A program made the translations under genes and the position numbers. Source: an uncultured Thermodesulfobacteriota bacterium (GTDB lineage Bacteria; Desulfobacterota; S145-22). Taken from it: 34,184 bases of DNA. Of this stretch, positions 11,204 through 27,826 are shown in pieces (positions within the stretch are counted from its first letter, which is position 1; each line of letters begins with the position of its first letter). The notes under the pieces are model-generated. The model saw nothing but the letters and a program-made list of their open reading frames with translations. It ran no database searches and was not told where the DNA came from. The stretch is from NCBI GenBank assembly GCA_964589315.1, contig CAZPTH010000003.1, forward strand, positions 1 to 34,184, read 5' to 3'.

Positions 11204-12862
11204 TTACATCCTCTGGGGCGCGTTGATCCCGAGGAGATCAAGCCCATTGCGAATCACCTGCTTGACACACCGCACGAGGAAGAATCTCGCGGCACTGGTG
11301 TCGGTATCCTCCACCAGGACCCGCGTGTGGTTGTAATAATGGTGAAATTCCCCCGACAGCTCGTGGAGGAAGTAGACCATACGGTGGGGTTCCAGGGCCT
11401 CCGCGCACTGAGCCACGACCTCCGGGAAGCGGGCGATTCGCTTCATCAGCCGCTTCTCGCCCGGAAGCTCCAGGCACTGCCAGCTCACCTGGCTGTATTC
11501 GGGGACAGGGACCCCGGCTTCCCGGGCCTTTTGCTCGATGCTGCATACCCGCGCGTGCGCGTATTGCACGTAGAAGACCGGATTTTCATTCGATTGCCTC
11601 CGCGCCAGGTCGAGATCGAAGTCGAGGGGGGAGTCCGAGCGCCGCATCAGAAAGAAATAGCGTGCGGCGTCTTTCCCGACCTCGTTTAAGACCTCGCGAA
11701 GGGTTACGAAGGTTCCCCCACGGGTTGACATGGAGATCTTTTCCCCTTTCCTGAGGAGGTTAACCAGCTGGATGAGGACTACTTTCAGTTGGTCCGGGTC
11801 GTAGCCCAGGGCCTCGATAACCCCCTTCATCCTCGGGATATAACCGTGGTGATCCGCCCCCCAGACATCGATCACGAGGTCGTACCCACGTTTAAACTTG
11901 TCCCAGTGGTACGCGATGTCCGAGGCGAAGTAGGTCGTTTCTCCGTTCTGTCGAATGACCACGCGGTCCTTTTCATCCCCGAATCGGGAACTGGTAAACC
12001 AGGTGGCGCCCTCCCGCTCCTCGATGAACCCCCTGTTTCTCAGGTCTTCAAGGGCCTGAGACACCTCTCCCCCTTCGAAAAGGGATGCCTCGGAGAACCA
12101 CCGGTCGAATGAGACGCCGAAACTTTCCAGGTCCGAGCGGATGGAGGCAAGAATCTCCTCGGCGGCCACTTGGCGGCATCTTTCGATGGCGGCATCTTCG
12201 TCCATGGCAAGGAGTCGATCTCCTTCCGTTTCATTCAGCCTTCGGGCGATGTCCCGGATGTAGTCGCCCTGGTAGTGGTCTTCGGGAAAGGGGATCTCCC
12301 GGCCGTTCAGTTGGAGGAGGCGGAGGTAGACCGAGCGGCCCAGGACCTTCATCTGGCGCCCGATGTCATTGATGTAATATTCCGTGTCCACCTGGTGTCC
12401 CACGGCACGAAGCAGTCTCGCCAGGGTGTCTCCCACGGCGGCCCCCCGTCCATGCCCCACGTGAAGGGGCCCCGTGGGATTGGCGCTCACGAATTCGACC
12501 TGGATCTTTCTCAAGGGGGATGCCTGCGTCTGTCCAAACGTGTTTCCCCTCTCTTCGACCTCTTTAAGGGTCTCGAACCAGGTGGCCGGGGAAAGGGTGA
12601 AGTTGATGAATCCGGGACCCGCGATCTCCACCGAGGTAAAAAAGTCTGTTTCCTTCAGCCGAGCAGCCAGTGTCTGGGCAATTTCCCTGGGGTTTTTCTT
12701 TAAGGTAGAGGCGAGCCGCATGGCCACGTTGGTGGTGTAATCTCCGAAGCGTTCCTGCGTGGGGTAATCCACGGTGATCTCCGGGGGTTCGCCTCCCGCT
12801 TTAAGTTCCGGGAACTCTTCCCAGAGTGATGTCTCAATGATTTTTCGTATCCGTTCCTTCAT
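11204..12862 (-). CDS. argS: Arginine--tRNA ligase
   Basis: EFVSANPTGPLHVGHGR, WGADHHGY, MSTR, YVQYAHAR. Confidence 0.97.
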   Translation of the reverse strand: MKERIRKIIETSLWEEFPELKAGGEPPEITVDYPTQERFGDYTTNVAMRLASTLKKNPREIAQTLAARLKETDFFTSVEIAGPGFINFTLSPATWFETLKEVEERGNTFGQTQASPLRKIQVEFVSANPTGPLHVGHGRGAAVGDTLARLLRAVGHQVDTEYYINDIGRQMKVLGRSVYLRLLQLNGREIPFPEDHYQGDYIRDIARRLNETEGDRLLAMDEDAAIERCRQVAAEEILASIRSDLESFGVSFDRWFSEASLFEGGEVSQALEDLRNRGFIEEREGATWFTSSRFGDEKDRVVIRQNGETTYFASDIAYHWDKFKRGYDLVIDVWGADHHGYIPRMKGVIEALGYDPDQLKVVLIQLVNLLRKGEKISMSTRGGTFVTLREVLNEVGKDAARYFFLMRRSDSPLDFDLDLARRQSNENPVFYVQYAHARVCSIEQKAREAGVPVPEYSQVSWQCLELPGEKRLMKRIARFPEVVAQCAEALEPHRMVYFLHELSGEFHHYYNHTRVLVEDTDTSAARFFLVRCVKQVIRNGLDLLGINAPQRM

Positions 12863-13010
12863 CTGCCTTCTTTTCCTCTTCTTCCCCTTCTTTTGGAAGG
12901 GACAGGTCCCTCGTATAATCGGGACAGATTCTGTCTTTCATGGTAAACCGTTTCTGGCAGGTCTTTCGCCATGCACAAATGGAGCAAAAGGTCTTTTCCG
13001 CTGACGACAT
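12834..13010 (-). CDS. Small 58-aa protein with four Cys (putative Fe-S/Zn binding)
   Basis: GGGGAG Shine-Dalgarno before ATG 13010; MSSAEKTFCSICAWRKTCQKRFTMKDRICPDYTRD; fills the gap between the hydrolase gene and argS. Confidence 0.7.
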   Translation of the reverse strand: MSSAEKTFCSICAWRKTCQKRFTMKDRICPDYTRDLSLPKEGEEEEKKADEGTDTKNH

Positions 13011-13027
13011 CGTTTGTTCTCCCCTTC

Positions 13028-13849
13028 TCAGGATTCCTGGGTAAGGGCCTGGTAGAATTGCGGTTGCCTGTCCTTTAGAACGGGCCACTGGTTTCGCGCG
13101 CTGGCGACCTCCTTCAGGTCGATATCCGCGATGATCAGGCCCTCGGTCTTTCCGCTTTCCTCCCCGAGGAGGTCCCCGCCGGGCCCCACGCAGAAGCTCA
13201 TGCCATAGAAGTTCTGTTTATCCTCCACGCCCACCCGGTTGACGCGAAAGGCGTAATATCCGTTCGTGATGGCATGGGACATGATCATGGTCTTCCACCT
13301 GTGGTGGGAAAGGAAGGCATTGGCCGTGGGGCTGAAGAGGATCTCGGCCCCGCCGAGCCCCAGGATCCTTGCTGCCTCGGGAAAGAAGTTATCCCAGCAG
13401 ATCAGGATCCCCACCTTGGCGTATCTTGTCTCGATGACCGGAAATCCCAGGTCCCCCGTTTCAAAATAGGACCGCTCCTCCCACAATGGGAACTGGGGGA
13501 CGTGAACCTTTCGATACCTGCCCGCGATTTCGCCGTCGGCATCGATGACGAAAGCCGTATTGTAATAATGGCCGTCCCCGGATTTTTCAAAGAGGGTGCA
13601 GACGAGCACCATCTCCTCTTTCCGGGCTATCTCCCGCATTTCCGTCAGCGTGGGGCCTTCCTCGTCTTCCGCCAGATTGAAATAGTCCTGGTTGATTTCC
13701 GAGGGGAACCAGTGCGTTTGGAAGAGCTCGGGAAAACAGACGATCTTAACCTCTTTCGTCGCGGCAAACCTGAGGAGTTTCAGGGCCCGGTTCAGGTTGT
13801 AGTCCTTGTCTTTCTTACAGCTCAATTGCACACCGGCGATTCTCAGCAT
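13028..13849 (-). CDS. Carbon-nitrogen hydrolase (nitrilase superfamily, N-carbamoylputrescine amidase/ureidopropionase-like)
   Basis: E-K-C triad motifs FPEL, YRKVH, ICWD; start reassigned to ATG 13849 behind AGGAGAAGGA. Confidence 0.88.
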   Translation of the reverse strand: MLRIAGVQLSCKKDKDYNLNRALKLLRFAATKEVKIVCFPELFQTHWFPSEINQDYFNLAEDEEGPTLTEMREIARKEEMVLVCTLFEKSGDGHYYNTAFVIDADGEIAGRYRKVHVPQFPLWEERSYFETGDLGFPVIETRYAKVGILICWDNFFPEAARILGLGGAEILFSPTANAFLSHHRWKTMIMSHAITNGYYAFRVNRVGVEDKQNFYGMSFCVGPGGDLLGEESGKTEGLIIADIDLKEVASARNQWPVLKDRQPQFYQALTQES

Positions 13850-13863
13850 TGTAAATCCTTCTC

Positions 13864-14877
13864 CTACAGTCGTTTGAGTCCGAGGGATTCCATGTCCCAT
13901 AAGGGGGAGACTGTTATGATCTGTTCCTCCCCGGTCTTGATGTCTTTTAAGGAGGCCTGCACCTCCTTTTCATTTCTGCCCTTCCCGTAGCGTGCCACGA
14001 TGCCTGCCGCCTCCTTCAGCCTCTCAGGTGAAAATCCCTGGCCCTTGAGAAGCCCGAGGGGCCCGGGAAAATCCCTGACACTGACAAGGACAGATCCCGC
14101 TTTGAGCAGTTCAGACAGGCGACCGTTTTCCGCCTGGTTTCTACCCACGATGAGATGGGTCCTGTCAGGCCAGATGAAATGTCTCCCGACCCGGCAAAGT
14201 TCAATGTCGTCCCGGTCGATTTCCGGGTATGTCTTTACCACATATTCGATTCTTTTGGAAAGCGTGGGATCGGTAAGGATGCAGCCCCCCGCGGGAGACG
14301 GGTAATCCGTAATACCGAACCTGGCGGCAAGCTCCATCTGCCCCTTGCGGTTTCTCCCGGAAAAGTCGAAAAGGGAAGCCCGATCAACGAGGCCCTCTTT
14401 CTCGGGAATCGTTTCAGGCAGGAGCTTTGCGGACAGGGGGCGGAGGAGGTATCCTTCCATGCCCGAGTCCCGTTCCACGATCCGCATGGTATCCCTCCGC
14501 TGTGACATGGGGCGTTGCCCGATCACCTCTCCCGTGGCCACAAAACGGGCTCCCGTTTCCCTCATGATCTCTCCCGCCTTTTTAACCATGAGGATTTTGC
14601 AGTCGATACAGGGGTTAAAGTTTTTCCCGTACCCGTGCGCTGGTGATTTAAGCATGGGAAAGTAATCCTCCGTGATATCCACTACTGTGAGCTTAATCCC
14701 CCATCTTGTCCGAACCTTCTCGGCCAGGTGGTCGGGGTTTGCGAGGGAGCGGCTTCCGAAAAAAGGGGTCACGAACTTTACAGCCAGAACATCGATCCCC
14801 TGGGCCTCCAGGATTTTGATGGAAAGAATACTGTCCAAACCGCCCGAAAACAGGCAAATTGCTTTGACTGGCTCCAT
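13864..14877 (-). CDS. PP-loop tRNA sulfurtransferase (ThiI/MnmA-like) with a C-terminal DUF814/NFACT-R-like domain
   Basis: SGGLDS PP-loop, NPCIDCK, GEVIGQRPMSQ, PAGGCILTD, GRHF and GRN motifs; no N-terminal THUMP domain. Confidence 0.8.
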   Translation of the reverse strand: MEPVKAICLFSGGLDSILSIKILEAQGIDVLAVKFVTPFFGSRSLANPDHLAEKVRTRWGIKLTVVDITEDYFPMLKSPAHGYGKNFNPCIDCKILMVKKAGEIMRETGARFVATGEVIGQRPMSQRRDTMRIVERDSGMEGYLLRPLSAKLLPETIPEKEGLVDRASLFDFSGRNRKGQMELAARFGITDYPSPAGGCILTDPTLSKRIEYVVKTYPEIDRDDIELCRVGRHFIWPDRTHLIVGRNQAENGRLSELLKAGSVLVSVRDFPGPLGLLKGQGFSPERLKEAAGIVARYGKGRNEKEVQASLKDIKTGEEQIITVSPLWDMESLGLKRL

Positions 14878-14885
14878 AAGTAATG

Positions 14886-14915
14886 AAAAAAGCTAAACAC
14901 TCGCATGTTTAGCTT
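14886..14915 (-). terminator. Intrinsic terminator or attenuator hairpin between the PP2C gene and the housekeeping run
   Basis: Minus strand AAGCTAAACA-TGCGAG-TGTTTAGCTT followed by further T residues. Confidence 0.5.
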
Positions 14916-14981
14916 CCACGCTCTCCTTTCTCTCCTCATACTTACCAGAGATTACAAGGAAATTCAATTGATGCGTAAAGG

Positions 14982-15944
14982 TTACGGAGCCCCGGCCGAC
15001 TTTTTTTGCCCCGTGTCGTGAGGGGACCCCATCCCGAGGGAGGAATAGATGAAATTTCGGGCCCTTTTTCCCATCTCTGTGGAACGGCCCAGGTACCAGG
15101 CCCCACCCGCCAGGATGAGGAGACACAGGAGGACTGCCAGCCATTTCAGGGGACTTTTCTTTGAGGATTTCACGTCTGGCTCGGTGTCGAATCGCCGGGT
15201 CCCGGCCATCACCTTGTCATCCAGGACGGCCAGGGTAATGGAGATGTTGTCTTTCCCGCCCGCGGCGTTCGCCGCGGAGACCAGGCGCCGGATGGCCTCC
15301 TTGGGGCTGTGATCGAGGAGCACGTCTCTGATTTCCGATTCAGGCACCTCGTCGTAGAGGCCATCGGAGCAAAGGAGGACCTGATCGCTGGGGCGTAATA
15401 CGATCTGGCGGTAGTCGAACTTCTGTTCGGGTGAGATTCCCAGGGCGTTGATGATGACATGGCGCTTTGGATGGGTTAAAGCCTCCTCCGGGGAGAGGAC
15501 GCCTTCGTTGACCATTTTGCGCACCAGGGTATGGTCCTCCGTCAAGGCTTGCAGGGTTTTTCCCCTTAAGAGGTAAGCCCGGCTGTCTCCCACCTGCAGG
15601 AGATGGAGCTCCGGGAAGCGGATGACGGTGGCCGTCAACGTGGTTGCCATTCCCTTGCATTCGGGATGTTGATTCACGTAGTTTCTGATGCCTTGATTGG
15701 CCGCTGTGACGGCCTGGGACAGGAAGGTCTTGGGATCCAGCTTTTCGGCCTTCTCGAAGTGCTGTTGAAGGGTCTGAACGGCCAGGCGGCTGGCGATTTC
15801 CCCGCACATGTTTCCACCCACGCCGTCCGCGACTACCATCAGGAGGAGGTCCTGCTTCTTGAAGACGGCGCAGGCATCCTGGTTGTTGGATCGCTTGCGG
15901 CCCGTGTCCGTGATGGAAAAGGCCTGTATGCGCTGAGTCGCCAC
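14982..15944 (-). CDS. PP2C-family (Stp1/PrpC-like) Ser/Thr phosphatase with C-terminal TM anchor
   Basis: TDTGRKRSNNQD, VADGVGG, QVGDSRAY, LCSDGL, GGKDNIS; TM segment WLAVLLCLLILAGGAWYL. Confidence 0.93.
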   Translation of the reverse strand: MATQRIQAFSITDTGRKRSNNQDACAVFKKQDLLLMVVADGVGGNMCGEIASRLAVQTLQQHFEKAEKLDPKTFLSQAVTAANQGIRNYVNQHPECKGMATTLTATVIRFPELHLLQVGDSRAYLLRGKTLQALTEDHTLVRKMVNEGVLSPEEALTHPKRHVIINALGISPEQKFDYRQIVLRPSDQVLLCSDGLYDEVPESEIRDVLLDHSPKEAIRRLVSAANAAGGKDNISITLAVLDDKVMAGTRRFDTEPDVKSSKKSPLKWLAVLLCLLILAGGAWYLGRSTEMGKRARNFIYSSLGMGSPHDTGQKKSAGAP

Positions 15945-15956
15945 GGGGACAGCGTG

Positions 15957-16460
15957 TTAGAGGAGTTTGAATTTGATGGTGGTCTGACCGATTTCGATCA
16001 GGTCCCCATCGTGAAGCTCTATCCGGTCCACGGCCTGTCCGTTAACCCTGGTTCCGGAATCGGTATCCAGATCCGTCAGGAAATAGGTGTCGTCCTTCTT
16101 CCTGATGCTTACATGAATCCTGGAAAGGGAGTCATCGTTTAACCGGATATCCGCCGCATCCCCCCTGCCGATAAGCAGCTGTCCCATATCCACGGGGATA
16201 TGGAACTCCTTCCACCTGTCTTCTCCCTTGACAATGACGAGCCACCCGAGAAACGCCCCGACGGGTTCCAGCCCCTCCGAGAAGATCTGTGTCTTATCAA
16301 GGGGTTGTTCCGTGAAGACGGACGTCTTGTCCGGGCTGGAAAGGTTTTCCGCCACGATCTCCGTCTTTTCGAAAGATGCCTGCTGGGCCAATTCTCTCCC
16401 GCAATCTCTGCAGGTTTTAGACCCGTCCGGGATGGTTGCACCGCAAAATGGACAAATCAT
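15957..16460 (-). CDS. Zinc-ribbon + FHA domain protein
   Basis: CPFC...CRDC; FHA motifs IGRG, LSRIH, DLDTDSGTRVNG, GDLIEIG. Confidence 0.9.
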   Translation of the reverse strand: MICPFCGATIPDGSKTCRDCGRELAQQASFEKTEIVAENLSSPDKTSVFTEQPLDKTQIFSEGLEPVGAFLGWLVIVKGEDRWKEFHIPVDMGQLLIGRGDAADIRLNDDSLSRIHVSIRKKDDTYFLTDLDTDSGTRVNGQAVDRIELHDGDLIEIGQTTIKFKLL

Positions 16461-16484
16461 TTTTTTCTCCTGTCAAAAAAGTTC

Positions 16485-18320
16485 TTAATTTCGTGGAAAT
16501 GCCCCTTCAAAGCCGACGGGTTTATCATTGTTTTCAGGTTCGGCGTTCTTTTTGCCTGTGTGCTTGCTCCCGGAAGGATGTTCCAGGTCTTTTAATGATT
16601 TTTTGATTGATTTGAAGAAATGCCCGATCTGCTTATCTATGGTAAGGGTCTCATTCTCTTTCTTTTTTGCCTTTTTTTCATGTTGCTGAGGAGGAGATTG
16701 CTTCTTGATCTGTTGCTCGGTACTGTAGGTGCCTTCCGAACCCTCTTTGATCTTTTGACTCGGTTTCCGTTTCTTTGATTTTTTTGCGACGGGTCGCCTT
16801 TTGTGTTTCTGCCTTGTTTTTTGTGTGCCTGTACCGGATTCCCGGGTCTTTTCGGAACTTTCCTTTAATTCTCCAGAAGGGGTCATCTCGACGACCGTTC
16901 CGCCCCGGGGGGATTCCCCGGAAGATGTGGAAGTTACCTTATGCTCGGGTTTTCTTGGTTGTTTTTTTTGTACGTTCTCCTGAGGCACCACGGTTTCTTC
17001 CTGGTCTTTCTTATATTCTCCGGAAGGGGTCATTTCGACGATTTCCCCTTCCGGGGCAGTCTCCACGGAGGGGGGGGACGTTTCTCGTTTTTCCTCTCCC
17101 TCTCCAGATTCCGGTTTGCCTACACTCTTTTCAATTTCTTCGAGAACAGGGGTGACATTTTCCTCAGACGAACCTTCCGCCGCCGGCTTCACGGAGCCGT
17201 TTCCCTCCAGACCAGTTTTTTTTTCTGCCTTTTTTGGAGGGGGCGATGGAGGAGACGTCTCCTGGACCTTTTTTTCGATCGCAGGGGCCTTAACAACAGG
17301 GATAATACTCTTTTTTCGGTTCATGAACCAGTAGGTAACCACCACAATCGTGGCCCCTAACAGGAGGATGGCGATAATGATCCAGATGAGAGGAGAGACC
17401 TTTTTCCCCGTCGCTTGAAGAAAACTTCCTGTCCCTTTTTTTATCCCCCCTTCCGACGCCTTTTCTGGGGAAGGGATTGAGGATTTTGGCTTTTTCTCGG
17501 GAGTTGCGCCCAGGGAATCTAAGTCCTTTAGAACCTCCGCGGCAGAGGAGTAGCGTTTTGCGGGATCCTTTTCCAGGAGCTTGAGGATGATAACAGCGAG
17601 GGGTTTCGGGATGTCCTTTTTGATCTTCTTGGGATCGGGAGGAGGGGTTTCCGCGTGGGCCTTCATGATTTCGAAGTCTGAATTTCCAAAAAAGGGCAGT
17701 TTCCCCGTGACCATCTGGAACAGGGTAATTCCCATGGCATAGAGATCACTTCGGGCGTCCACGGATTTTCCCTTGATCTGCTCGGGAGACATGTACCACA
17801 GGGTGCCGAGTCTGACACCGGCCCGCGTGTGACCCTGTTCCGTGGTGGCCTTGGCAATACCGAAATCGGTGACCTTGACATGCCCTTCCGGGGTGATCAT
17901 GATATTTCCCGGTTTCAGATCCCGGTGGATCACACCCTTGGAATGCATGAAGGCGAGGGCTTCCAGGACCTGGCGGGTTATCCGAGTCGCCGTGGCAGGG
18001 GGCATCGCCCCCTTCTCCTGGATGATTTTATCGAGGGTTTGTCCCTCCACGAATTCCATGACGAGGAAGAGACGACCGTCACGTTCCAGGAGATTATGGA
18101 CATTTACCACATTGGGGTGGTTCAGCTTGGCCTGGATTTTCGCCTCACGGATGAAACGCTCACGCATTTCGGAATTGGAGGCCAGTTCCGGGGAGAGGTC
18201 TTTGATGGCAACCAGTTGTTCCAGGCGGACATGGACGCCCTGGTAAACAACACCCATACCGCCTTCACCAATCTTTTTGAGGATTTTGTAATCCCCTATT
18301 ACGGTTCCAAGAAGCGACAT
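16485..18320 (-). CDS. Membrane-anchored Hanks-type Ser/Thr protein kinase with low-complexity C-terminal tail
   Basis: GEGGMGVV, VAIK, HRDLKPGN, DFG, GTLWYMSPEQ; TM LIWIIIAILLLGATIVVVTYWF; K/E/P/S-rich tail with no PASTA repeats recognised. Confidence 0.93.
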   Translation of the reverse strand: MSLLGTVIGDYKILKKIGEGGMGVVYQGVHVRLEQLVAIKDLSPELASNSEMRERFIREAKIQAKLNHPNVVNVHNLLERDGRLFLVMEFVEGQTLDKIIQEKGAMPPATATRITRQVLEALAFMHSKGVIHRDLKPGNIMITPEGHVKVTDFGIAKATTEQGHTRAGVRLGTLWYMSPEQIKGKSVDARSDLYAMGITLFQMVTGKLPFFGNSDFEIMKAHAETPPPDPKKIKKDIPKPLAVIILKLLEKDPAKRYSSAAEVLKDLDSLGATPEKKPKSSIPSPEKASEGGIKKGTGSFLQATGKKVSPLIWIIIAILLLGATIVVVTYWFMNRKKSIIPVVKAPAIEKKVQETSPPSPPPKKAEKKTGLEGNGSVKPAAEGSSEENVTPVLEEIEKSVGKPESGEGEEKRETSPPSVETAPEGEIVEMTPSGEYKKDQEETVVPQENVQKKQPRKPEHKVTSTSSGESPRGGTVVEMTPSGELKESSEKTRESGTGTQKTRQKHKRRPVAKKSKKRKPSQKIKEGSEGTYSTEQQIKKQSPPQQHEKKAKKKENETLTIDKQIGHFFKSIKKSLKDLEHPSGSKHTGKKNAEPENNDKPVGFEGAFPRN

Positions 18321-18338
18321 GGCTGCCTCTATCTTCCC

Positions 18339-20033
18339 TTATTCAGGCTTTTTGAAGATGAAGGTTGCCATCTTGCCTTTTCCGATGATGATGACATCTC
18401 CGGGTTTCAGGACCTCAGACTTGATCTGGTGACCCATCGTGTTGAGAAAGGTTCCGTTTGCCGAGGCAAGGTCTTTGACGACGATATTTCCCCCCTCTTC
18501 CCCGATCCAGGCGTGTTCACGGGAGACGTGGGGGTTGTCGATAACGATGTCACATTTGGCGGCGTCGCGCCCGATCTTCAACCCTTCCTTTGAGATTTCG
18601 AAGGTCTTCCCCTCTACGGGGCCGTCTTTCCCCACGAGAATGCCTGAGGGACCGGGGGCTTCCTTCGGTTTTTCGATCAGTGTAACCTCTTCAACGGGTT
18701 CCGGGGGAGCGACAGACGAGACAGATGGTTCTCCCCTTTTCCCACCTTTTTTCGCGATCACGATCACGATAATCAGGAGAATGAGGATTCCTACCCCGAT
18801 CCCCACGTAGAGCGCGACCTTCTTCCAAGACGTGGGGCATTCCCCTTTCGTTATCTTTTCCTGGGTAAGGCGCTGCAGCTTGAGGACATCGGGCTGCTGC
18901 GGCATCAGTTTCAGAACGGCGTCACAATATTTCATGACGGCGTCACATTCCTGTGCCTTATAGGCCTTCAGGGCCTGTGCCCACAGCTTGTTGAAAAGGC
19001 TTTCCTCAGTGGTCTTGATCCCCGCCCGGGCGATAAATTCCTTGACGGTATTGATGGGAACCAGAAAATTGAATCCCTGGATCTGCTGAGATCCCGACGC
19101 GGTTTTTTCGATGCTGCCCAGTGTGGACATGCCGATGACTTTGCCATTGGCGTCAAACGCCGGGCCTCCGCTGTTCCCGTGGGCGATGGGGGTATCGGTC
19201 TGGATGAGAGAGGCCCCCGTCGCGGTCAGCTTCTTCCCTGAGATGTGTCCCACGGTGACGGTGCAGTCCAGGATATTTTCCAGGCTTTTCTGAAGCATGG
19301 CATGGGAGAGGATAACGCCGGGGTACCCCGCGGCGTAGACGACTTCGCCCAGTTGGACAGAACTGGAATCCCCAAGGATGGCGACAGGCAGGTCCTTGGC
19401 CTCGATCTTGATGATGGCGATGTCTTTTCCCGTTTCCGATTCGTATTCAAATCCCGGGATATCCAGTTTTCCCGCGAAGCGTCCCATGGGGGGGCTGTAA
19501 TCCTTGACCTCGGCGGGATACTGCTTCTTGTTGGAAAGGAGGACCTTGAGGTCTTTCTTTATCGCCACCATGGTTTTGGGCTTCAGGATGCCATACAACT
19601 GGATGATAGCCGCCTTGATGCTCGCAGGATTGTTTTCTACCTTTCCGGACTGGATAAGTTTCGGGATGAAATGTTTCTGGATAACCTGCATCAGAAACAT
19701 TCTTTCGAGCTGTTTGTCGTTTTTCTCATAGTAAAACTGAACGACATGCCCGTTGGTGCAGATATACCCGTTCGGATTGATGATAAATCCGGACCCCGTG
19801 GATCCTATGCCCACGTCGTTGAAGGTCTTCAACCCGCTTTTCGTTTTTATTTGAACGCTTCCAGAAACTTGTGAAACGATGAAGACCACCGACGGCTTTA
19901 CCCGAAGAAGCATCATCTGGGCCGCTTCGTTGGCAGCATGGGATTTCCCCGGCAAAAGAAAGAGACCCGTAAAAATGAACAAAAAGATAATTAGAAAGAC
20001 CTTCCCCTGTTTCAAAGCTCTTCCACCTCTCAT
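18339..20033 (-). CDS. Trypsin/HtrA-like serine protease + TPR-like helices + TM + FHA domain fusion
   Basis: Signal peptide ending SHA; GSGFII, TNGHVV (His), KDIAIIK (Asp), TDTPIAHGNSGGP (Ser); TM VALYVGIGVGILILLIIVIVIA; FHA motifs IGRD, VSREH, DLASANGTFLN. Confidence 0.9.
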   Translation of the reverse strand: MRGGRALKQGKVFLIIFLFIFTGLFLLPGKSHAANEAAQMMLLRVKPSVVFIVSQVSGSVQIKTKSGLKTFNDVGIGSTGSGFIINPNGYICTNGHVVQFYYEKNDKQLERMFLMQVIQKHFIPKLIQSGKVENNPASIKAAIIQLYGILKPKTMVAIKKDLKVLLSNKKQYPAEVKDYSPPMGRFAGKLDIPGFEYESETGKDIAIIKIEAKDLPVAILGDSSSVQLGEVVYAAGYPGVILSHAMLQKSLENILDCTVTVGHISGKKLTATGASLIQTDTPIAHGNSGGPAFDANGKVIGMSTLGSIEKTASGSQQIQGFNFLVPINTVKEFIARAGIKTTEESLFNKLWAQALKAYKAQECDAVMKYCDAVLKLMPQQPDVLKLQRLTQEKITKGECPTSWKKVALYVGIGVGILILLIIVIVIAKKGGKRGEPSVSSVAPPEPVEEVTLIEKPKEAPGPSGILVGKDGPVEGKTFEISKEGLKIGRDAAKCDIVIDNPHVSREHAWIGEEGGNIVVKDLASANGTFLNTMGHQIKSEVLKPGDVIIIGKGKMATFIFKKPE

Positions 20034-20103
20034 GTATTCCTCCCTCTTTTTGAATGATTAAAACCTATACCTTGAATCACAGCCCTAAATTATTCACCAT
20101 ATT

Positions 20104-20195
20104 GTAAAAGTCTTTTACCTTCTGGCTTGCTTAATGTCAATAATGGGGGAGGTGTCGCTGACTTACTTGACAAACCCTCTTCAGATTCGTAAAGG
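20104..20195. promoter_or_regulatory. Back-to-back sigma70-like promoters with a palindromic operator candidate
   Basis: Minus TTGACA(20140-20135)-N17-TAAAAG; plus TTGACA(20167-20172)-N17-TAAAGG; palindrome GTAAAAG-T-CTTTTAC at 20104-20118. Confidence 0.45.
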
Positions 20196-20232
20196 GTAGT
20201 AACAAAATCTTAAGGGGAATGGAACTTCTTTA

Positions 20233-20754
20233 ATGTCTGAACGAAAAGGACTTGTCATCGTCAACACGGGGAATGGCAAAGGGAAGACAACAGCGGCACT
20301 TGGATTGGCCTTCCGGGCCCTGGGACATGGGTTTCGGGTTTTGATGGTCCAGTTCATCAAGGGATCATGGAAGTACGGGGAACTCGAATCGGCAAAGAAG
20401 TTTGAAAATTTTACCTTGATTCCCATGGGGCGCGGGTTTGTCTCCACGGACGGGAAAATTGCGGAGGAGGACCGTAAGGCGGCAGGCGAGGCCCTTTCAT
20501 ATGCGCAGGCTCACATGAAAGACTACGATATGGTCATCCTGGATGAGGTCATTTACGCCATAGGGTTTGGGCTCGTAGACGTGAAAGAGGTTGTGGACCT
20601 GATCAAGGAGAAGCCCGCAGGGGTTCACCTGGTCCTGACGGGGAGGAACGCCCCGGAGGAAATCCTGGAGAGGGCAGACCTGGTGACGGAAATGAGGGAA
20701 ATCAAGCATCCCTATCAGAAGGGGATCAAGGCGCAACGGGGGGTCGAGTTTTGA
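20233..20754 (+). CDS. cobO: Cob(I)yrinic acid a,c-diamide adenosyltransferase (CobO/BtuR)
   Basis: TGNGKGKTTAALG, VQFIKG, ILDE, VLTGR, DLVTEMREIKHP. Confidence 0.95.
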   Translation: MSERKGLVIVNTGNGKGKTTAALGLAFRALGHGFRVLMVQFIKGSWKYGELESAKKFENFTLIPMGRGFVSTDGKIAEEDRKAAGEALSYAQAHMKDYDMVILDEVIYAIGFGLVDVKEVVDLIKEKPAGVHLVLTGRNAPEEILERADLVTEMREIKHPYQKGIKAQRGVEF

Positions 20755-21647
20755 GCCAGACGGGATTGGAGTTCGGTTACTGTCAAAAGTATAATAAAAA
20801 AATTCCCCTCGATGAAAACACAGACTGTGTCCATCCCCATGAATATTGCAGGTTTCGGGCTTCCTGCATCATCAATGAACTTGGTAAGGAGAATCGCCGT
20901 CGCAAGCGGATGGCCCAGGCAGGGAGGCTCGGGGTTCTCTATGGCATCGGGGTAGGCCCTGGAGACCCGTCCATGATTACGCTCCAGGCCATCGATTGTC
21001 TGAAACGCCTCGATGTCATCTTTGCCTCCAAAAAGGCGGGTGTCGCGGAAAGTATCGCCCATACGGTGGTAAAGGAGCACCTTTCTCCCTCGGCGGAGGT
21101 TCGGTTCCTCGAGTTTCAGGCCACCTATGACCGGGAGGCCTTTGATGCCGTGTGGGCGGAAAACGCGAAGAAAGTGGGGGAAGTCCTGAAAACGGGAAAG
21201 GACTGTGGCTACATTACCCTGGGGGATCCCTCCCTTTACAGCACCTTTTCACACCTGATACGGAACCTCCGGAAACAGGAACCCGCGGTAAGAATCGAAA
21301 TCATTCCCGGTGTTTCGATGGTAATGGCCGCCGCAAATCTCCTGAATGTCCCCCTCGCCATCGATGGGGAGACATTGTCTCTGATCCCCTCGGCCCAGAT
21401 TGACCCGGAGCATCTCCACAAGTTGATACGGACCTCCGACAACCTTGTTTTCATGAAGATCCCAAGCGATGCCCAGGAGCTCCTCAGACGTCTCGAGGAA
21501 GAGGGGCTTCTGCACCATGCCATCTGGATCCAGAAATGCTGCCTCCCAGGCCAGCGGGTCGTAAAGGAGTTGAACGTGGAGACCCTGGAAGAGGAACAGG
21601 AGAGGTATTTGTCTCTCATGATTGTGAAAAAGAAGGTCATGATTTGA
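20751..21647 (+). CDS. cbiL: Precorrin-2/cobalt-factor II C20-methyltransferase with a possible Cys-rich N-terminal extension
   Basis: LYGIGVGPGDPSMIT, TLGDPSLYSTF, IIPGVS, YLSLMIV. The TTG start overlaps the cobO stop; alternative in-frame ATG at 20910. Confidence 0.85.
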   Translation: MSQTGLEFGYCQKYNKKIPLDENTDCVHPHEYCRFRASCIINELGKENRRRKRMAQAGRLGVLYGIGVGPGDPSMITLQAIDCLKRLDVIFASKKAGVAESIAHTVVKEHLSPSAEVRFLEFQATYDREAFDAVWAENAKKVGEVLKTGKDCGYITLGDPSLYSTFSHLIRNLRKQEPAVRIEIIPGVSMVMAAANLLNVPLAIDGETLSLIPSAQIDPEHLHKLIRTSDNLVFMKIPSDAQELLRRLEEEGLLHHAIWIQKCCLPGQRVVKELNVETLEEEQERYLSLMIVKKKVMI

Positions 21648-21751
21648 ACTGTGATGCCCTTAAATGGGTTCGTAACAAGGAGGATGTGGAGACCTTCCAG
21701 AATTGATACACTCGCAAAATGTCAGAATTAGAGGAGGTATAAAGAACGGCC

Positions 21752-22171
21752 ATGAAGAGTTACAGGAAGGAACTCTGGTTTAACATCCCGACCCGTCGGG
21801 CCTTTGTGAATATTACCCCGGAGGTCAGTGAATGCCTGCGTGAAAGCGGCATAAAAGAAGGGTTATGCCTGGTGAATGCCATGCATATTACGGCCTCCGT
21901 TTTCATTAACGATGACGAAAAGGGGTTGCACCAGGACTACGAACGCTGGCTCGAATGGCTGGCACCCCATGAGCCTGTCTCCAAGTATCAACACAACCGA
22001 ACGGGGGAGGATAACGGGGACGCCCATCTGAAACGCCAGGTCATGGGCCGGGAGGTCGTTGTGGCAGTGACGGACGGAAGACTCGATTTCGGCCCGTGGG
22101 AGCAGATCTTTTACGGGGAGTTCGACGGGCGGCGCCGCAAGCGGGTCCTCGTCAAGATCATCGGGGAATGA
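21752..22171 (+). CDS. yjbQ: YjbQ/UPF0047 family protein
   Basis: [33 protein letters not shown]; GAGGAGG Shine-Dalgarno. Confidence 0.92.
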
Positions 22172-22235
22172 GGGAGACTACATTGACATTACCCTGAAAA
22201 TATGATTTTTTACCTTTTTTGATTGGAGGTTTTGT

Positions 22236-22466
22236 TTGAAAGGGTCCATAAAGATTGATTCTAATCTCTGCAAGGGATGCGCGTTTTGCGTGGAGGCATG
22301 CCCCAATGACCTGATCGAGATCGGGTCTCGGCGGAACGCGATGGGGTATTTTTACGCGATTGTGAAAAAGGAGAAGGCCAAGGACGGCAAGGGGTGCACG
22401 GGATGCACCCTCTGCGCCGTCATGTGCCCGGAAGTAGCCATCGAGGTGTATCGTGAAAAGAGATGA
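22236..22466 (+). CDS. 2-oxoacid:ferredoxin oxidoreductase delta subunit (2x[4Fe-4S])
   Basis: CKGCAFCVEACP and CTGCTLCAVMCP; GGAGG before the TTG start. Confidence 0.9.
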   Translation: MKGSIKIDSNLCKGCAFCVEACPNDLIEIGSRRNAMGYFYAIVKKEKAKDGKGCTGCTLCAVMCPEVAIEVYREKR

Positions 22467-23535
22467 AAAACCTTCCCTGATGCGGGGAAGCCATATTGTC
22501 GCAGAGGCAGCCGTTCGGGCGGGGTGTCGTTATTATTTCGGGTATCCCATTACTCCCCAGAACGAACTGCCGGAATATATGTCGAAACGCCTTCCCGAGG
22601 TCGGGGGTGTTTTTGTCCAGGCGGAGAGTGAAATCGCCTCCATCAACATGGTCATTGGTGCCAGCATGGCGGGGGCGCGGGTCATGACCTCCTCGTCGTC
22701 TCCGGGAATCAGCCTCAAGCAGGAAGGTATTTCCTACCTGGGTGGCCTTGAACTGCCGGCGGTCATCGTCAACATGATGCGCGGCGGTCCCGGGCTTGGG
22801 AATATCGCCCCATCGCAGTCCGATTATTTTCAGGCGACCCGGGGGGGTGGCCACGGGGATTATCGTACCATCGTCCTCGCGCCCGCCTCGGGGCAGGAGC
22901 TCTGTGACCTGACTTACAAGGCCTTTGATATGGCGGATCATTATCGAAATCCCGTCCTCATCCTGGCGGATGGGATGATGGGCCAGATGATGGAACCGGT
23001 TCGGTTTCCTGTCCCCAGGGATGTGGGAAAACTCCCAAAGAAGCCCTGGGCCATCACGGGGGCGAAGGGGAGAAAGAGCCACTTCATCCGATCCCTCATC
23101 CTGGATCCCGGTCAGATGGAGGAACACAACTGGAAGCTGATCCGAAAGTATGAACAGATTGCGGATTCCGAGGTAAGGTTTGAATCTTTCAAGGTGGATG
23201 ACGCGGACCTGGTGATCGTGGCCTTCGGAACCGCGGCCCGCATCGCGAAGGCGGCGGTCAAGCGGGCCCGGAACGAGGGGCTCAAGGTGGGGCTTTTCCG
23301 GCCTATTACCCTGTGGCCTTATCCGTCGAAGGAACTTCGCGACCTGTCGAAACGGGTCAAACACTTTTTCGTGTTTGAACTGAACGCGGGTCAAATGATC
23401 GAGGATGTGCAACTGGCGCTCGGGGGACAGGCGGATGTCTTTTTCTATGGCAGACCCGGAGGGGTTGTGCCGAATCCGGCCGAGATTTCGAGGATTGTGT
23501 CCCGCCAGTTTTTTCAGAAGGAGATTGGTAAATGA
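22453..23535 (+). CDS. vorB: 2-oxoacid:ferredoxin oxidoreductase alpha subunit (VorB-type)
   Basis: YFGYPITPQ, QAESEIA, TSSSSPGISLKQE, RGGPGLG, GGGHGDY. Confidence 0.9.
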   Translation: MKRDEKPSLMRGSHIVAEAAVRAGCRYYFGYPITPQNELPEYMSKRLPEVGGVFVQAESEIASINMVIGASMAGARVMTSSSSPGISLKQEGISYLGGLELPAVIVNMMRGGPGLGNIAPSQSDYFQATRGGGHGDYRTIVLAPASGQELCDLTYKAFDMADHYRNPVLILADGMMGQMMEPVRFPVPRDVGKLPKKPWAITGAKGRKSHFIRSLILDPGQMEEHNWKLIRKYEQIADSEVRFESFKVDDADLVIVAFGTAARIAKAAVKRARNEGLKVGLFRPITLWPYPSKELRDLSKRVKHFFVFELNAGQMIEDVQLALGGQADVFFYGRPGGVVPNPAEISRIVSRQFFQKEIGK

Positions 23536-24296
23536 AAAAGGTTTTCGAAAGACCCAAGTCCCTCAAGCCCAATCCCTATCACTACTGCCCGGGGTGTGGC
23601 CATAGTCTGCTTCACCGGATTGTGGCGGAGGTGATTGACGAAATGGGAGCCGAGGAGATTGCCATCGGGGTCCCACCGGCGGGCTGTGCCGTTTTGGCCT
23701 ATAACTATTTCGACGTGGACATGGGTGAGGCCGCCCATGGACGGGGGGCCGCCCTGGCTACCGGGGTGAAGCGGGTCTTGCCCGACCACCTGGTCTTTAC
23801 CTACCAGGGAGATGGAGATATCGCGGCCATCGGAACGGCGGAGACGGTCCATGCCGCGAACCGGGGAGAAAAGATTACCTGCATCTTTGTGAACAACGCC
23901 GTTTACGGCATGACGGGAGGACAGATGGCCCCCACCACCATCCTTGGGCAACCAACCACCACCTCCCCGGGCGGGAGAGAGGGAAACCGGGACGGATTTC
24001 CCCTCAACCTGAGCGAGATGCTGGCTGTGACCCGTGGAAGCGTCTATATCGAGCGGACGTCCGTGACCTCGCCTGCGGGAATCCGGGCGACGAAGAAGGC
24101 GGTCCGCAAGGCCTTCGAAATACAGTTGAAGGGGCTGGGGTTCACCCTTGTTGAGGTCCTGTCTCCCTGTCCCACGAACCTCAAAATGAGCCCCATAGAG
24201 GCCTGCAAGTGGGTGGACACCGAGATGGTTAACTACTTCCCCCTTGGGGTTATCAAGGATGTCACGGCCTCCGGGGAGGCACAAAATGCTGATTAA
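23532..24296 (+). CDS. 2-oxoacid:ferredoxin oxidoreductase beta subunit (TPP-binding)
   Basis: HYCPGCGH, YQGDGD...NNAVYGMTGGQ, LSPCPTN. Confidence 0.92.
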   Translation: MKKVFERPKSLKPNPYHYCPGCGHSLLHRIVAEVIDEMGAEEIAIGVPPAGCAVLAYNYFDVDMGEAAHGRGAALATGVKRVLPDHLVFTYQGDGDIAAIGTAETVHAANRGEKITCIFVNNAVYGMTGGQMAPTTILGQPTTTSPGGREGNRDGFPLNLSEMLAVTRGSVYIERTSVTSPAGIRATKKAVRKAFEIQLKGLGFTLVEVLSPCPTNLKMSPIEACKWVDTEMVNYFPLGVIKDVTASGEAQNAD

Positions 24297-24837
24297 GACG
24301 ATTTTCGCCGGATTCGGGGGACAGGGCGTTCTTTCCATGGGCTACGTGCTGGCCTACTCGGCCATGGTGGAGGGACTTCAGGTAACGTATCTTCCCTCTT
24401 ATGGCGCGGAGGTGCGGGGAGGAACGGCCAACTGTACCGTGGCCATTTCAAATGAGGAAATCGCGTCCCCTATCGCGTCATCCCCCGACAACGTGGTCGT
24501 GATGAATAACCCCTCCCTCGAGAAGTTCCAGCACCAGATCCTGACGGGGGGTGTGATGTTTATCAACAGCAACCTGGTGGAGAGCCGCCCGGTTCGAGGG
24601 GATATCGTCCTTTACGAGATCCCCTGTAATGATTTAGCCCATGAACTGGGGAGTGACCAGAGCGCCAACATGGTCATGCTCGGGGGATTTATCGAAAAGA
24701 CCGGCCTGGTAAAACTTGAGAGCGTTCGAAACGCCATCTCGGATGTCTTCAAGGAGAAGAAAAAGGCGAAAGAGATGAATTTGAAGGCCCTCGATATAGG
24801 ATTTAACTATATGAGAAACAATGGAGGGAACGCCTGA
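24286..24837 (+). CDS. 2-oxoacid:ferredoxin oxidoreductase gamma subunit
   Basis: AGFGGQG, PSYGAEVRGG, ANMVMLG; start reassigned to ATG 24286 behind GGGAGG. Confidence 0.92.
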   Translation: MLIKTIFAGFGGQGVLSMGYVLAYSAMVEGLQVTYLPSYGAEVRGGTANCTVAISNEEIASPIASSPDNVVVMNNPSLEKFQHQILTGGVMFINSNLVESRPVRGDIVLYEIPCNDLAHELGSDQSANMVMLGGFIEKTGLVKLESVRNAISDVFKEKKKAKEMNLKALDIGFNYMRNNGGNA

Positions 24838-25262
24838 TGGCCATCAAGCAGATATCGATCAGCCTGGAAAACGTTCCGGGCAAACTATCGGAAGTAAGTG
24901 AGATTCTCGGTAAAAACGGAATAAACATCATCGCCATAAGCGTGGTGGATGCGGCGGATATCAGCTCTATCCGGATCGTGGTAAACGATCCCGAGAAGGC
25001 GATCGAGGTCCTGAAGAGCAATCACTATATTATTCATCCCACGGATGTCCTGGCGGCGGAGGCCCCGAATCATCCCGGGGGGCTCAATGCCATCCTGAAG
25101 CCCTTGAAAGAACGGAACATCAATGTTTCCTATCTCTATCCCGTCCTGGGCACGAAGGACAAGACCGTTCTGATCGTGGGAGTGGACCGCCTGGAAGAGG
25201 CGGAAGAGGTCCTGAACCAGAACTGGGTCAAGTTGATCGGGGAAGAGCTCTACAGTTTGTAA
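24837..25262 (+). CDS. Tandem ACT-domain protein
   Basis: KQISISLENVPGKL...INIIAIS and PNHPGGL...INVSYLY; TGATG coupling to the gamma subunit gene. Confidence 0.88.
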   Translation: MAIKQISISLENVPGKLSEVSEILGKNGINIIAISVVDAADISSIRIVVNDPEKAIEVLKSNHYIIHPTDVLAAEAPNHPGGLNAILKPLKERNINVSYLYPVLGTKDKTVLIVGVDRLEEAEEVLNQNWVKLIGEELYSL

Positions 25263-25282
25263 CGTTGCAACGGGACAAAGAG

Positions 25283-25320
25283 AAAGGCCCGCTCCGTCGA
25301 GCGGGCCTTTTTTACTTTTT
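25283..25320 (+). terminator. Rho-independent terminator, possibly bidirectional
   Basis: AAAGGCCCGCTC-CGTC-GAGCGGGCCTTT followed by a T tract, between convergent genes. Confidence 0.9.
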
Positions 25321-25342
25321 TATGCTCGTTGACTCTTGGTGG

Positions 25343-26191
25343 TTACGCGTAACTGTGGAGACCCGAAATGAGGTAGTTGACCCCGAAGTAGGTGAACAAG
25401 ACGGCGACGAACCCCAGGACTGAGAGATAAGCAGCCTTTTTCCCGTGCCACCCCCGCGTGTATCGGGCGTGGAGGAAGGCGGCATAGATAAACCAGGTAA
25501 TCAGGGACCACGTTTCCTTGGGATCCCAGCTCCAGTAGCTCCCCCAGGCGTAATTGGCCCACATGGCCCCCGTGATGATCCCGATGGTCAGCATGGGAAA
25601 CCCGATGATAATCGACTTGTAATTGGCGTCATCCAGGACCCTTGTCTCTGGAAGCCAGGAGATGGGATTTCCCGCCTTCTTCCTCTTGCTCTGGAGGAGG
25701 TAAAGGAGGCTGACCACGAAGGCCGCCGCAAAGGCGGCGTAACCGAAGAAACAGGTCGTCACGTGAATCGTGAGCCAGTTGCTCTGAAGGGCGGGGATCA
25801 ACGGCGTGATCCTGTCACTGACCCCTGGGATAATGGAAGTGGCGGCAATGGCCAGGAAGGCAAGGGGAACGAAAAAGACCCCGATGACCTTGCGTTTGTA
25901 TCGCCATTCGAAGATGAGGTAGATAAAAATCATGGTCCATGAGAAGAAGATCAGGGACTCATACATGTTGGAAAGGGGAACGTATCCGTAACCCGTGAGA
26001 TGTGTTTCATGCCACCGGAAGGCGATGCCCGCCGTGTGAACCAGGAAGCCGAAAACGAGAACCAGGGTGGCCACCGTTCCCAGCTTTTTGTTCTTGAAGG
26101 CCATGAAGGCCAGATAGCAAAGGGTTGCCACGATGTAGGTCATCATGGCAATCCCGAAGAGTTTTGAACTGATCATTGGAACCTGGTGCAT
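25343..26191 (-). CDS. ccsB: Cytochrome c biogenesis system II heme-handling membrane protein (CcsB/ResC/CcsA family)
   Basis: WWD domain WGSYWSWDPKETW, LQSNWLTIH, C-terminal GLHSY, multiple TM helices. Confidence 0.93.
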   Translation of the reverse strand: MHQVPMISSKLFGIAMMTYIVATLCYLAFMAFKNKKLGTVATLVLVFGFLVHTAGIAFRWHETHLTGYGYVPLSNMYESLIFFSWTMIFIYLIFEWRYKRKVIGVFFVPLAFLAIAATSIIPGVSDRITPLIPALQSNWLTIHVTTCFFGYAAFAAAFVVSLLYLLQSKRKKAGNPISWLPETRVLDDANYKSIIIGFPMLTIGIITGAMWANYAWGSYWSWDPKETWSLITWFIYAAFLHARYTRGWHGKKAAYLSVLGFVAVLFTYFGVNYLISGLHSYA

Positions 26192-26224
26192 TGTTTCGCC
26201 CCTTTCATCAATTATCGCTATTAT

Positions 26225-26252
26225 ATACTAACAGCAGGAGGGAAAATGTCAA
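26225..26252 (-). promoter_or_regulatory. sigma70-type promoter of ccsB
   Basis: TTGACA(26252-26247)-N16-TAGTAT with an extended -10 TG. Confidence 0.55.
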
Positions 26253-26323
26253 ACAAAATGACGCGATTAAGGGATCTTTTTCTCTCTTTTAGACTGCTTT
26301 TGCCCGCGGGAAAAGTCCCTCCG

Positions 26324-27271: not shown

Positions 27272-27322
27272 ACCTGTTTGTCCTTTAAGGGATTGATTTC
27301 ATGTAACGGGTCAATTGGTTAT

Positions 27323-27805: not shown

Positions 27806-27826
27806 AAAACCTCCATCAAATGATGC

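Follow-up and report, generated by a model that had tools for sequence, protein, structure and literature searches.

A conserved Ser/Thr kinase, PP2C and FHA operon with a protease-TM-FHA member: a candidate link between cytoplasmic phosphorylation and extracytoplasmic proteolysis

Can Ser/Thr phosphorylation inside a bacterial cell be coupled to proteolysis on the far side of its membrane? The question is raised by four genes on contig CAZPTH010000003.1 (GenBank assembly GCA_964589315.1) of an uncultured Thermodesulfobacteriota bacterium, which we analyzed over a stretch of 34,184 nucleotides (nt), referred to here as the window. Calling of open reading frames (ORFs) showed that four minus-strand ORFs fill 14982-20033, with gaps of 18, 24 and 12 nt in operon order, and bore out the shared orientation and 12-24 nt spacing described in an initial annotation of this DNA. 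They encode a protease fused through a transmembrane (TM) segment to an FHA domain (gene 1), a Hanks-type Ser/Thr kinase (STK; gene 2), a small Zn-ribbon-FHA protein (Zn-FHA; gene 3) and a PP2C phosphatase (gene 4). The initial annotation had read these as a kinase writer, a PP2C eraser and two FHA readers, one of them fused to an exported serine protease, and Pfam and NCBIfam agree with that reading. Hydropathy likewise agrees with the three TM anchors it proposed: TM segments were found in the protease, the kinase and the PP2C and none in Zn-FHA, so three of the four proteins appear to be membrane-anchored. Judged by sequence, the locus is a conserved, chromosomally fixed membrane phospho-signaling operon. 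Bacterial Hanks kinases are known to act, by way of FHA domains, on cytoplasmic targets and on a few membrane machines, and we found no described case in the open-access literature in which they control an exported protease.

The fusion protein is the unusual member. Gene 1 scores 87.4 bits against Trypsin_2 and 60.2 bits against FHA (cut-off 20.7) in Pfam, and hydropathy gives amino acids (aa) 10-28 as the core of a signal peptide and aa 408-426 as a TM segment, with Lys/Arg right after it. From the N terminus, the protein comprises a signal peptide (~aa 1-33), the protease (aa 49-336), helices (aa 346-395), the TM helix (~aa 403-429), a disordered linker (aa 430-458) and the FHA domain (aa 464-561). 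An AlphaFold2 (AF2) model built from an 18-sequence alignment (A1) has a predicted local distance difference test score (pLDDT) of 82.5 and shows a signal helix followed by two protease barrels, three periplasmic helices and an FHA sandwich. The catalytic triad (H96/D204/S288) is invariant in A1. A helical insert (aa 95-153) separates His96 from Asp204, and the His-Asp spacing is 108 residues, compared with a median of 95 over 202 fusion proteins that we collected. Foldseek matched the protease to the protease domains of HtrA1, DegS and Deg1 (E ~1e-17, TMt ~0.8), and a sequence search of the PDB returned HtrA proteins over aa 200-339 only, together with GarA over the FHA domain. No PDZ family was detected in Pfam at E<=0.01. 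The FHA domain, modeled with pLDDT above 90, belongs to PF00498 and has the canonical fold, and its phosphothreonine (pThr)-binding residues G488, R489, S504, H507 and N526 are all present.

We then asked how widespread this architecture is. Most of the best 120 matches of a word-indexed search carry both Trypsin_2 and FHA, under generic names only. When 1.84 billion cluster representatives (50%-identity clusters) were searched exhaustively with the family profile, 2,945 matched at E<=1e-30; the best 150 of these comprise 102 with both domains, 47 with the protease only and 1 with FHA only. Among the 202 collected fusions, the triad Ser288 is present in all 202, His96 in 188 and Asp204 in 192 (the remainder being gaps except for one Arg at the His position), and the FHA residues Arg489, Ser504, His507 and Asn526 are found in 199, 198, 201 and 197, respectively. 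Since the triad and FHA residues are near-universal, both the protease and the FHA halves look functional throughout the family. On these searches, the protease-FHA fusion is a large unnamed family spread over several phyla, one distant cluster of which includes a Hydrogenobacter protein. The same type of protease also occurs with a rhodanese domain (PF00581) in place of FHA (P0102 and P0106), and in many other proteins it stands without an added domain, so that the partner domains of this exported protease module appear to be interchangeable. The initial annotation knew of no characterized protease-TM-FHA protein, and that still holds for the full-text open-access literature in PubMed Central (PMC) and bioRxiv, where no paper on such a protein was found; subscription journals lie outside this scope.

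The kinase has the features of an active Hanks-type enzyme. It scores 223.8 bits against Pkinase (cut-off 31.7), keeps the VAIK, HRD and DFG motifs and the activation-loop Thr, and belongs to the Hanks type; K40, H132-R133-D134, D152-F153-G154, T159, T165 and T173 are invariant in a kinase alignment (A2). Its best NCBIfam match is PknB_PASTA_kin (NF033483), at 346 bits against a cut-off of 450 and over aa 10-280 only, and no PASTA family was found in Pfam; membership of the PASTA kinase family was rejected on both counts. A TM segment at aa 311-329 (hydropathy) leads into an extracytoplasmic tail (aa 330-611) that is rich in Lys, Glu, Pro and Ser (K 17%, E 14.5%, P 9.8%). By composition, this ectodomain is charged, of low complexity and probably disordered, without a recognizable sensor fold. 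It holds short conserved islands in A2, among them VEMTPSG, which is repeated (aa 428 and 477), and an amphipathic motif at the C terminus, and in long alignments it is 30-41% identical among relatives, versus 80-83% for the kinase domain. Prediction of a complex between protease aa 35-400 and kinase aa 336-611 gave scores of 0.03 and 0.04 (mark 0.32), which speak neither for nor against binding. The phosphatase scores 77.9 bits against PP2C_2 (catalytic domain aa 12-238) and is the only one of the four proteins to pass a named family model, Stp1/IreP (NF033484; 248.8 bits, cut-off 230, model positions 2-230 of 232), to which it belongs. A TM segment at aa 268-286 (hydropathy) is followed by a short tail of ~34 aa. 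PstP is likewise a TM-anchored PP2C.

Gene 3 points to a way in which the kinase and the protease might be connected. It matches Zn_Ribbon_1 (29.2 bits) and FHA (63.0 bits) and consists of a Zn ribbon (aa 1-26), a disordered linker (aa 27-64; pLDDT <50 in AF2) and an FHA fold (aa 70-167; pLDDT of the domain 90 or above). We aligned, at full length, 13 Zn-FHA sequences encoded beside the fusion in three lineages (A3). T33 is invariant, in the context K/x-T-x-hydrophobic, and T57, found in at least 90% of the sequences, has the context K-T-x-hydrophobic-hydrophobic. The position of the "GR" Arg is occupied by Arg in only 3 of the 13, by Lys in 3, by Asn in 1 and by Ser in 6, and the FHA domain of gene 3 itself has Ser in place of the loop Asn. 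This loss of the Arg contrasts sharply with its conservation in the protease FHA. Because T33 and T57 are conserved from phylum to phylum in a disordered linker while the Arg of its own FHA is mostly lost, we infer that Zn-FHA serves mainly to accept phosphate or as an adaptor, and that the canonical FHA domain of the protease reads its pThr.

These observations can be assembled into a mechanism. The kinase would autophosphorylate and phosphorylate the linker Thr of Zn-FHA, and it may also phosphorylate a Thr-x-hydrophobic site in the TM-FHA linker of the protease, a site that recurs in protease linkers 20-25 residues ahead of the FHA domain. The protease FHA would dock on the pThr sites, giving a complex of kinase, Zn-FHA and protease at the membrane that the PP2C would dissolve, and the cytoplasmic phosphorylation state would thereby be coupled to periplasmic proteolysis. 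In mycobacterial PknB, FHA domains dock on phosphorylated activation loops and juxtamembrane segments. We give an even chance to the view that the protease is coupled, through its FHA domain, to the kinase/Zn-FHA pair, and any one direction of signaling carries less weight than the coupling itself. Inside-out gating, in which pThr on the kinase or on Zn-FHA would cluster the protease and switch on extracytoplasmic proteolysis until PP2C resets the system, is a tentative proposal that has clearly less than an even chance. If true, it would let Ser/Thr phosphorylation in a prokaryote reach envelope proteolysis from the inside out, by way of a large, apparently unstudied, multi-phylum family. If the coupling is real, periplasmic proteolysis would also gain a new regulatory input, with the FHA domain replacing PDZ and taking the regulatory place that PDZ holds in DegS and DegP. 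The system is compact, with four proteins, and makes sharp predictions about single residues (R489 and S288 of the protease, T33 and T57 of Zn-FHA).

The signal might instead run from outside to inside, a direction for which the initial annotation pictured the protease as cutting the ectodomain of the kinase. In another version, the protease would be a DegS-like periplasmic sensor of envelope or unfolded-protein signals. Its state would pass along the TM helix to the FHA domain, which would capture or release the kinase or Zn-FHA and so set a cytoplasmic output. The fold of the protease is nearest to HtrA1 and DegS, the PDZ sensor is missing, with three helices, the TM helix and the FHA domain in its stead, and the ectodomain of the kinase itself is disordered and has no recognizable sensor fold. 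Moreover, the kinase ectodomains at other loci where fusion and kinase are linked are mutually unrelated, so that the protease is the conserved periplasmic element of the module, and an FHA-GAF-HD_5 protein encoded elsewhere in the genome could be the cytoplasmic output. However, the strict conservation of the triad argues for real proteolysis over mere sensing, and there is no known mechanism by which a single TM helix would alter the availability of an FHA domain. We consider outside-in sensing unlikely.

Conservation of the gene cluster bears on whether the four proteins work together at all. In the family of the window, all five further loci have the order protFHA-STK-ZnFHA-PP2C found in the window, one of them (L093) ending inside the PP2C gene. 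Their identity to the proteins of the window is 81-88% for the protease domain, 79-91% for the protease FHA, 80-83% for the kinase domain, 70-81% for Zn-FHA and 66-76% for PP2C. The visible flanks of three of these loci (L090-L092) match those of the window, with cbiL/cobO on one side and a PP-loop gene, a nitrilase gene and argS on the other, and the housekeeping context of the operon is syntenic across two genera. Loci outside the family were sampled by pattern scans of genome and metagenome contigs, with partners called by ORFs and hidden Markov models, and at least 29 bear the fusion. Among the matches listed, 13 of the 29 have, on the same strand and no more than 3.2 kb away, a gene for a kinase, a PP2C or a small FHA protein (L002-L007, L096-L099, L101, L115 and L125), and six of these 13 carry all three partner genes. 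A kinase is present in all nine linked loci with at least 1.9 kb of downstream flank, and the four linked loci without a visible kinase end no more than 930 nt downstream of the fusion gene. Gene order varies: it is protFHA-ZnFHA-PP2C-STK in Acidobacteriota and FHA-ZnFHA-PP2C-STK-protFHA-STK in a Syntrophaceae metagenome-assembled genome (MAG). At this last locus (L004:4914-11495), two kinases flank the protease-FHA gene, and a PP2C and a pair of small Zn-ribbon/FHA paralogues are also encoded. Its short kinase (a 337-aa frame) stops right after the TM segment, and the match to PP2C is divided between two overlapping frames, possibly through a frameshift.

In a maximum-likelihood tree of 37 rows, the loci divide into a linked and an unlinked side, with Syntrophaceae, the family of the window, and Acidobacteriota of the Bryobacterales and Acidiferrales type on the linked one. 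In the window's clade every locus among the matches listed has kinase, PP2C or Zn-FHA genes beside the fusion. The label "linked" requires 3 changes on the tree, compared with a mean of 12.5 after shuffling, and 0 of 500 shuffles were as low, a test that overstates independence since the sequences are related. Protease-only outgroup rows fall inside both sides and so do not place the root. The unlinked loci form a separate clade, so linkage appears to be clade-specific and not universal. The co-conservation of all four genes envisaged at the outset therefore stood in part: it held in the window's family, the Syntrophaceae MAG and several Acidobacteriota, but 16 of the 29 listed loci outside the family have no kinase, PP2C or FHA partner nearby. 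In sequence terms, the four genes are a co-conserved module in one clade of the fusion family.

Those 16 loci are the first of several observations that weigh against a dedicated circuit, for they indicate that the fusion can work without a dedicated neighboring kinase. Their sources, among the matches listed, are metagenome contigs and members of Pyrinomonadaceae and Blastocatellia, Plasticicumulans and Kofleriaceae. Several have 7-8 kb of flank on both sides, and one (L016) has an FHA gene 3.8 kb off on the opposite strand. At two of them (L013, and L009 from the cultivable Plasticicumulans acidivorans DSM 23606) no recurrent partner was found; the genes there include an M16 peptidase, a response regulator-GGDEF-EAL protein, an aldehyde dehydrogenase and a thiamine pyrophosphate enzyme. 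Two of the linked loci (L115 and L125) have the kinase as the only partner despite ample flank. Of 106 TM-FHA linkers of the protease, 28 have the motif [KRE]T.[ILVMF] versus 10.8 expected from shuffles, a modest enrichment for a pattern that was chosen after viewing the sequences. The signals expected at the ends of a transcription unit count on the same side. A consensus scan of the minus strand of the 199-nt intergenic region upstream (20034-20232) gave no sigma-70-like site, which leaves the promoter region of the initial annotation without a match; the operon promoter presumably lies in this region. The downstream hairpin that the annotation described was found (a 12-bp stem at 14889-14916 with a 4-nt loop, then U6; -14.9 kcal/mol), lying between the PP2C stop codon and the ATG of the downstream gene at 14877, though its z-score of -1.9 is weak and 7 of 200 shuffles fold equally well. 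Finally, the kinase and phosphatase may serve many targets of which the protease is one client: they are the only such pair in the genome, so the operon may be a general Ser/Thr hub and not a private circuit.

Such a hub would be a single Stk/Stp pair with many substrates, like PrkC/PrpC or Stk1/Stp1, in which the FHA proteins are ordinary clients that share the operon for historical reasons, without dedicated coupling to proteolysis. Searched at E<=1e-20, the window's own genome (91% complete) gave no Pkinase match but the operon kinase, the other match above the Pkinase cut-off being a Kdo/WaaP-type kinase, and PP2C_2 has one match. A single Pkinase match was also found in 6 of the 8 other genomes of the window's family. 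The PP2C passes Stp1/IreP, the kinase domain is nearest to PknB/Stk1, and the second clade of fusions lives without adjacent kinases. However, the same four gene types occur together in three distant lineages despite reordered genes, and functional coupling is favored because this recurrence with rearranged order is otherwise hard to explain. Across the phylum (401 genomes sampled, fusion cut-off E<=1e-40), the fusion is family-restricted, being found in 6 of the 8 further genomes of the family but in none of 392 that represent 110 other families, while Hanks kinases are common, with a match in 29 of 41 phylum relatives and in 22 of 32 genomes outside the family. We therefore regard a general hub as improbable, and prefer FHA-mediated coupling. 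The distribution of the fusion would fit acquisition of the module by the family's ancestor.

The genome contains further features that touch on these counts. Contig C4 of the same assembly (L094) repeats ~12 kb of the window (17006-28957) at 99.94% identity, and ends in the repetitive ectodomain of the kinase, where identity of the protein is only 95% over 108 aa and there is a jump of ~110 nt in the alignment of the DNA. It is likely assembly redundancy or strain variation in the repeat; because it duplicates the region, operon copy counts are doubled in the genome and the kinase matches twice. A search for sequencing runs listed four of DNA, all from a single hydrothermal-vent metagenome study, and none of RNA. 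FHA domains occur only in the two operon genes and in the FHA-GAF-HD_5 protein, which is encoded on contig C33 (L175:2972-4462), has an HD-GYP-type domain and adjoins a Kup K+ transporter gene. Orthologues alignable from about residue 25 onward, FHA domain included, are present in 5 of 8 other family genomes (59-66% identity). There is one weaker, near-full-length match elsewhere (G031), further relatives match the GAF-HD part only, and the copies in G003 and G004 have one in-frame TGA each. The protein is a candidate cytoplasmic output of the operon kinase. The Kdo/WaaP protein (contig C204, L176:890-2536) is 548 aa long and has lipopolysaccharide-kinase matches in two stretches, which suggests that the organism makes lipopolysaccharide and is a diderm.

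The features of the operon are collected in Table 1. Shine-Dalgarno-like sequences precede genes 1, 2 and 3 (GGGAGG ahead of the protease ATG), no obvious one was seen ahead of the GTG start of PP2C, and a search of 14700-20500 against Rfam at E<=0.1 matched no family.

Table 1. Positions in the window of the four genes, two of their domains and the flanking signals
Feature	Position	Strand	Evidence
Gene 1, protease-TM-FHA, 564 aa	18339-20033	-	ORF, Pfam, AF2, Foldseek, hydropathy
Cytoplasmic FHA domain of gene 1	18351-18644	-	Pfam, residue counts
Gene 2, Hanks-type Ser/Thr kinase, 611 aa	16485-18320	-	ORF, Pfam
Kinase domain of gene 2, aa 11-265	17526-18290	-	Pfam
Gene 3, Zn-ribbon-FHA, 167 aa	15957-16460	-	ORF, Pfam, AF2
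Gene 4, PP2C Ser/Thr phosphatase, 320 aa, GTG start	14982-15944	-	ORF, NCBIfam, Pfam
Upstream intergenic region, 199 nt, common to operon and divergent cobO	20034-20232		Sequence read
Terminator-like hairpin, then U6	14883-14916	-	RNA fold

The surroundings of the operon agree with the housekeeping setting of the initial annotation. Upstream, cobO (20233-20754, plus strand) is divergent from the operon and is accompanied by genes for a tetrapyrrole methylase, UPF0047 and POR; downstream are genes for a ThiI-like/NFACT-R protein, a CN hydrolase, ArgS, a SPOR protein, LepA and signal peptidase I. The nearest named relatives by LepA, ~68-71% identical, are mostly Desulfuromonadales and "Deltaproteobacteria", a weak pointer to Desulfuromonadales-like kin. 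The gene directly 3' of the operon (13864-14877, minus strand) encodes a ThiI-like PP-loop domain joined with an RNA-binding domain of the NFACT-R_2 type, and it keeps its position next to the operon in relatives. By translation only, an 84-aa ORF with four Cys lies between the nitrilase gene and argS (12834-13088, minus strand), and the tetrapyrrole methylase has an N-terminal extension of ~60 aa with four Cys (20751-20940, plus strand), its Pfam domain starting at aa 63. This setting also bears on a possible role in conflict or defense, in which the operon would be a kinase-based anti-phage or inter-bacterial module with the protease as effector. The kinase does match the PADLOC models PD-T4-6 (up to 333 bits; no curated cut-off) and mad6, and the protease weakly matches the PADLOC models RT-Protease and LmuA. 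But the stretch covered by the kinase models (aa 1-290) is no more than the generic kinase domain, and PADLOC gave nothing for Zn-FHA. The same housekeeping context is found in two genera, no mobile-element or defense genes adjoin the operon in the window, and it holds the only Hanks kinase of the genome. A defense function is thus very unlikely.

We also considered whether the operon is a detached accessory of a secretion or division apparatus, namely the phosphorylation pathway of type VI secretion systems (T6SS), a YscD-like part of a type III secretion system, or a division cluster of the actinobacterial PknB/FhaA/FhaB kind. There are weak matches to Yop-YscD_cpl, VI_FHA and FhaB_Rv0019c, the FhaB match spanning the TM-linker-FHA portion (aa 433-555). 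However, all of these matches are under their curated cut-offs, no PASTA domain is present, and no rodA, pbpA or secretion genes lie within the window. VipB (PF05943) had 0 matches in the 91%-complete genome, the unassembled part of which could still hold one. Such an origin is extremely unlikely, and the view of the initial annotation that this is not a detached part of a T6SS is upheld by the absence of VipB from that assembly and by TIGR03354 scores far below cut-off. The named families were rejected individually: the T6SS threonine-phosphorylation pathway (PpkA/PppA/Fha1-TagH) on TIGR03354 scores of 36.2 and 39.1 bits against 120.25 and no VipB found, FhaB/FipA (NF049868) on 53.7 and 50.6 bits against a cut-off of 125, and GarA/OdhI (NF041660) on 48.7 and 39.2 bits against a cut-off of 200.

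Comparison with characterized systems shows which parts of the operon have precedents. By sequence, GarA is the closest solved FHA to that of the protease (E 7e-10), and Zn-FHA resembles GarA/OdhI in that it is a small soluble FHA protein whose FHA domain is preceded by a disordered segment with conserved Thr. Unlike GarA/OdhI, it has an N-terminal Zn ribbon, and most of its orthologues lack the FHA Arg. Gene 1 has the protease fold and the His-Asp-Ser triad in common with the HtrA family (DegS, DegP and HtrA1). Unlike them, it has no PDZ domain, carries the helical insert between His and Asp, and ends in a TM helix and a cytoplasmic FHA domain, whereas DegS works through PDZ-sensed peptides. 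The HtrA/DegP/DegS family proper was rejected for gene 1 on the lack of PDZ and on scores below cut-offs (91.1 bits for TIGR02037, cut-off 416.2; 62.4 bits for the DegS model TIGR02038, cut-off 422.95). A PP2C and a Hanks kinase share an operon here, as in Stk1/Stp1 (PrkC/PrpC, IreK/IreP) and PknB/PstP, but there are no PASTA repeats, the ectodomain is charged and disordered, and no cell-wall genes are adjacent.

Close parallels in layout are reported among operons whose fourth member varies: a four-gene STK/PP2C/FHA operon with a vWA protein in Deinococcus (DRA0331-0334; 10.64898/2026.01.23.701218) and Esr pathways, for which FHA output proteins bearing zinc-finger-type domains are described (PMC13622651). 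Our operon shares with both a writer, an eraser, an FHA reader and one accessory protein, and differs in that the accessory is the protease-TM-FHA protein and that no vWA, MoxR or beta-propeller genes are present. In Mycobacterium tuberculosis, PknF shares an operon with Rv1747, a membrane ABC transporter with cytoplasmic FHA domains that is activated by phosphorylation of linker Thr, which its own FHA domains bind (PMC3138270). Both operons combine a kinase gene with a membrane effector that has a cytoplasmic FHA and an envelope-directed activity. Where Rv1747 is an ABC exporter with two FHA domains, our operon has as effector an HtrA-like protease that is exported and carries a single one; the operon adds a PP2C and a second FHA protein, and there is no sequence kinship beyond the FHA and kinase domains. 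The STK/PP2C/FHA module is thus of a type already known, and it is the protease-TM-FHA member that sets this operon apart.

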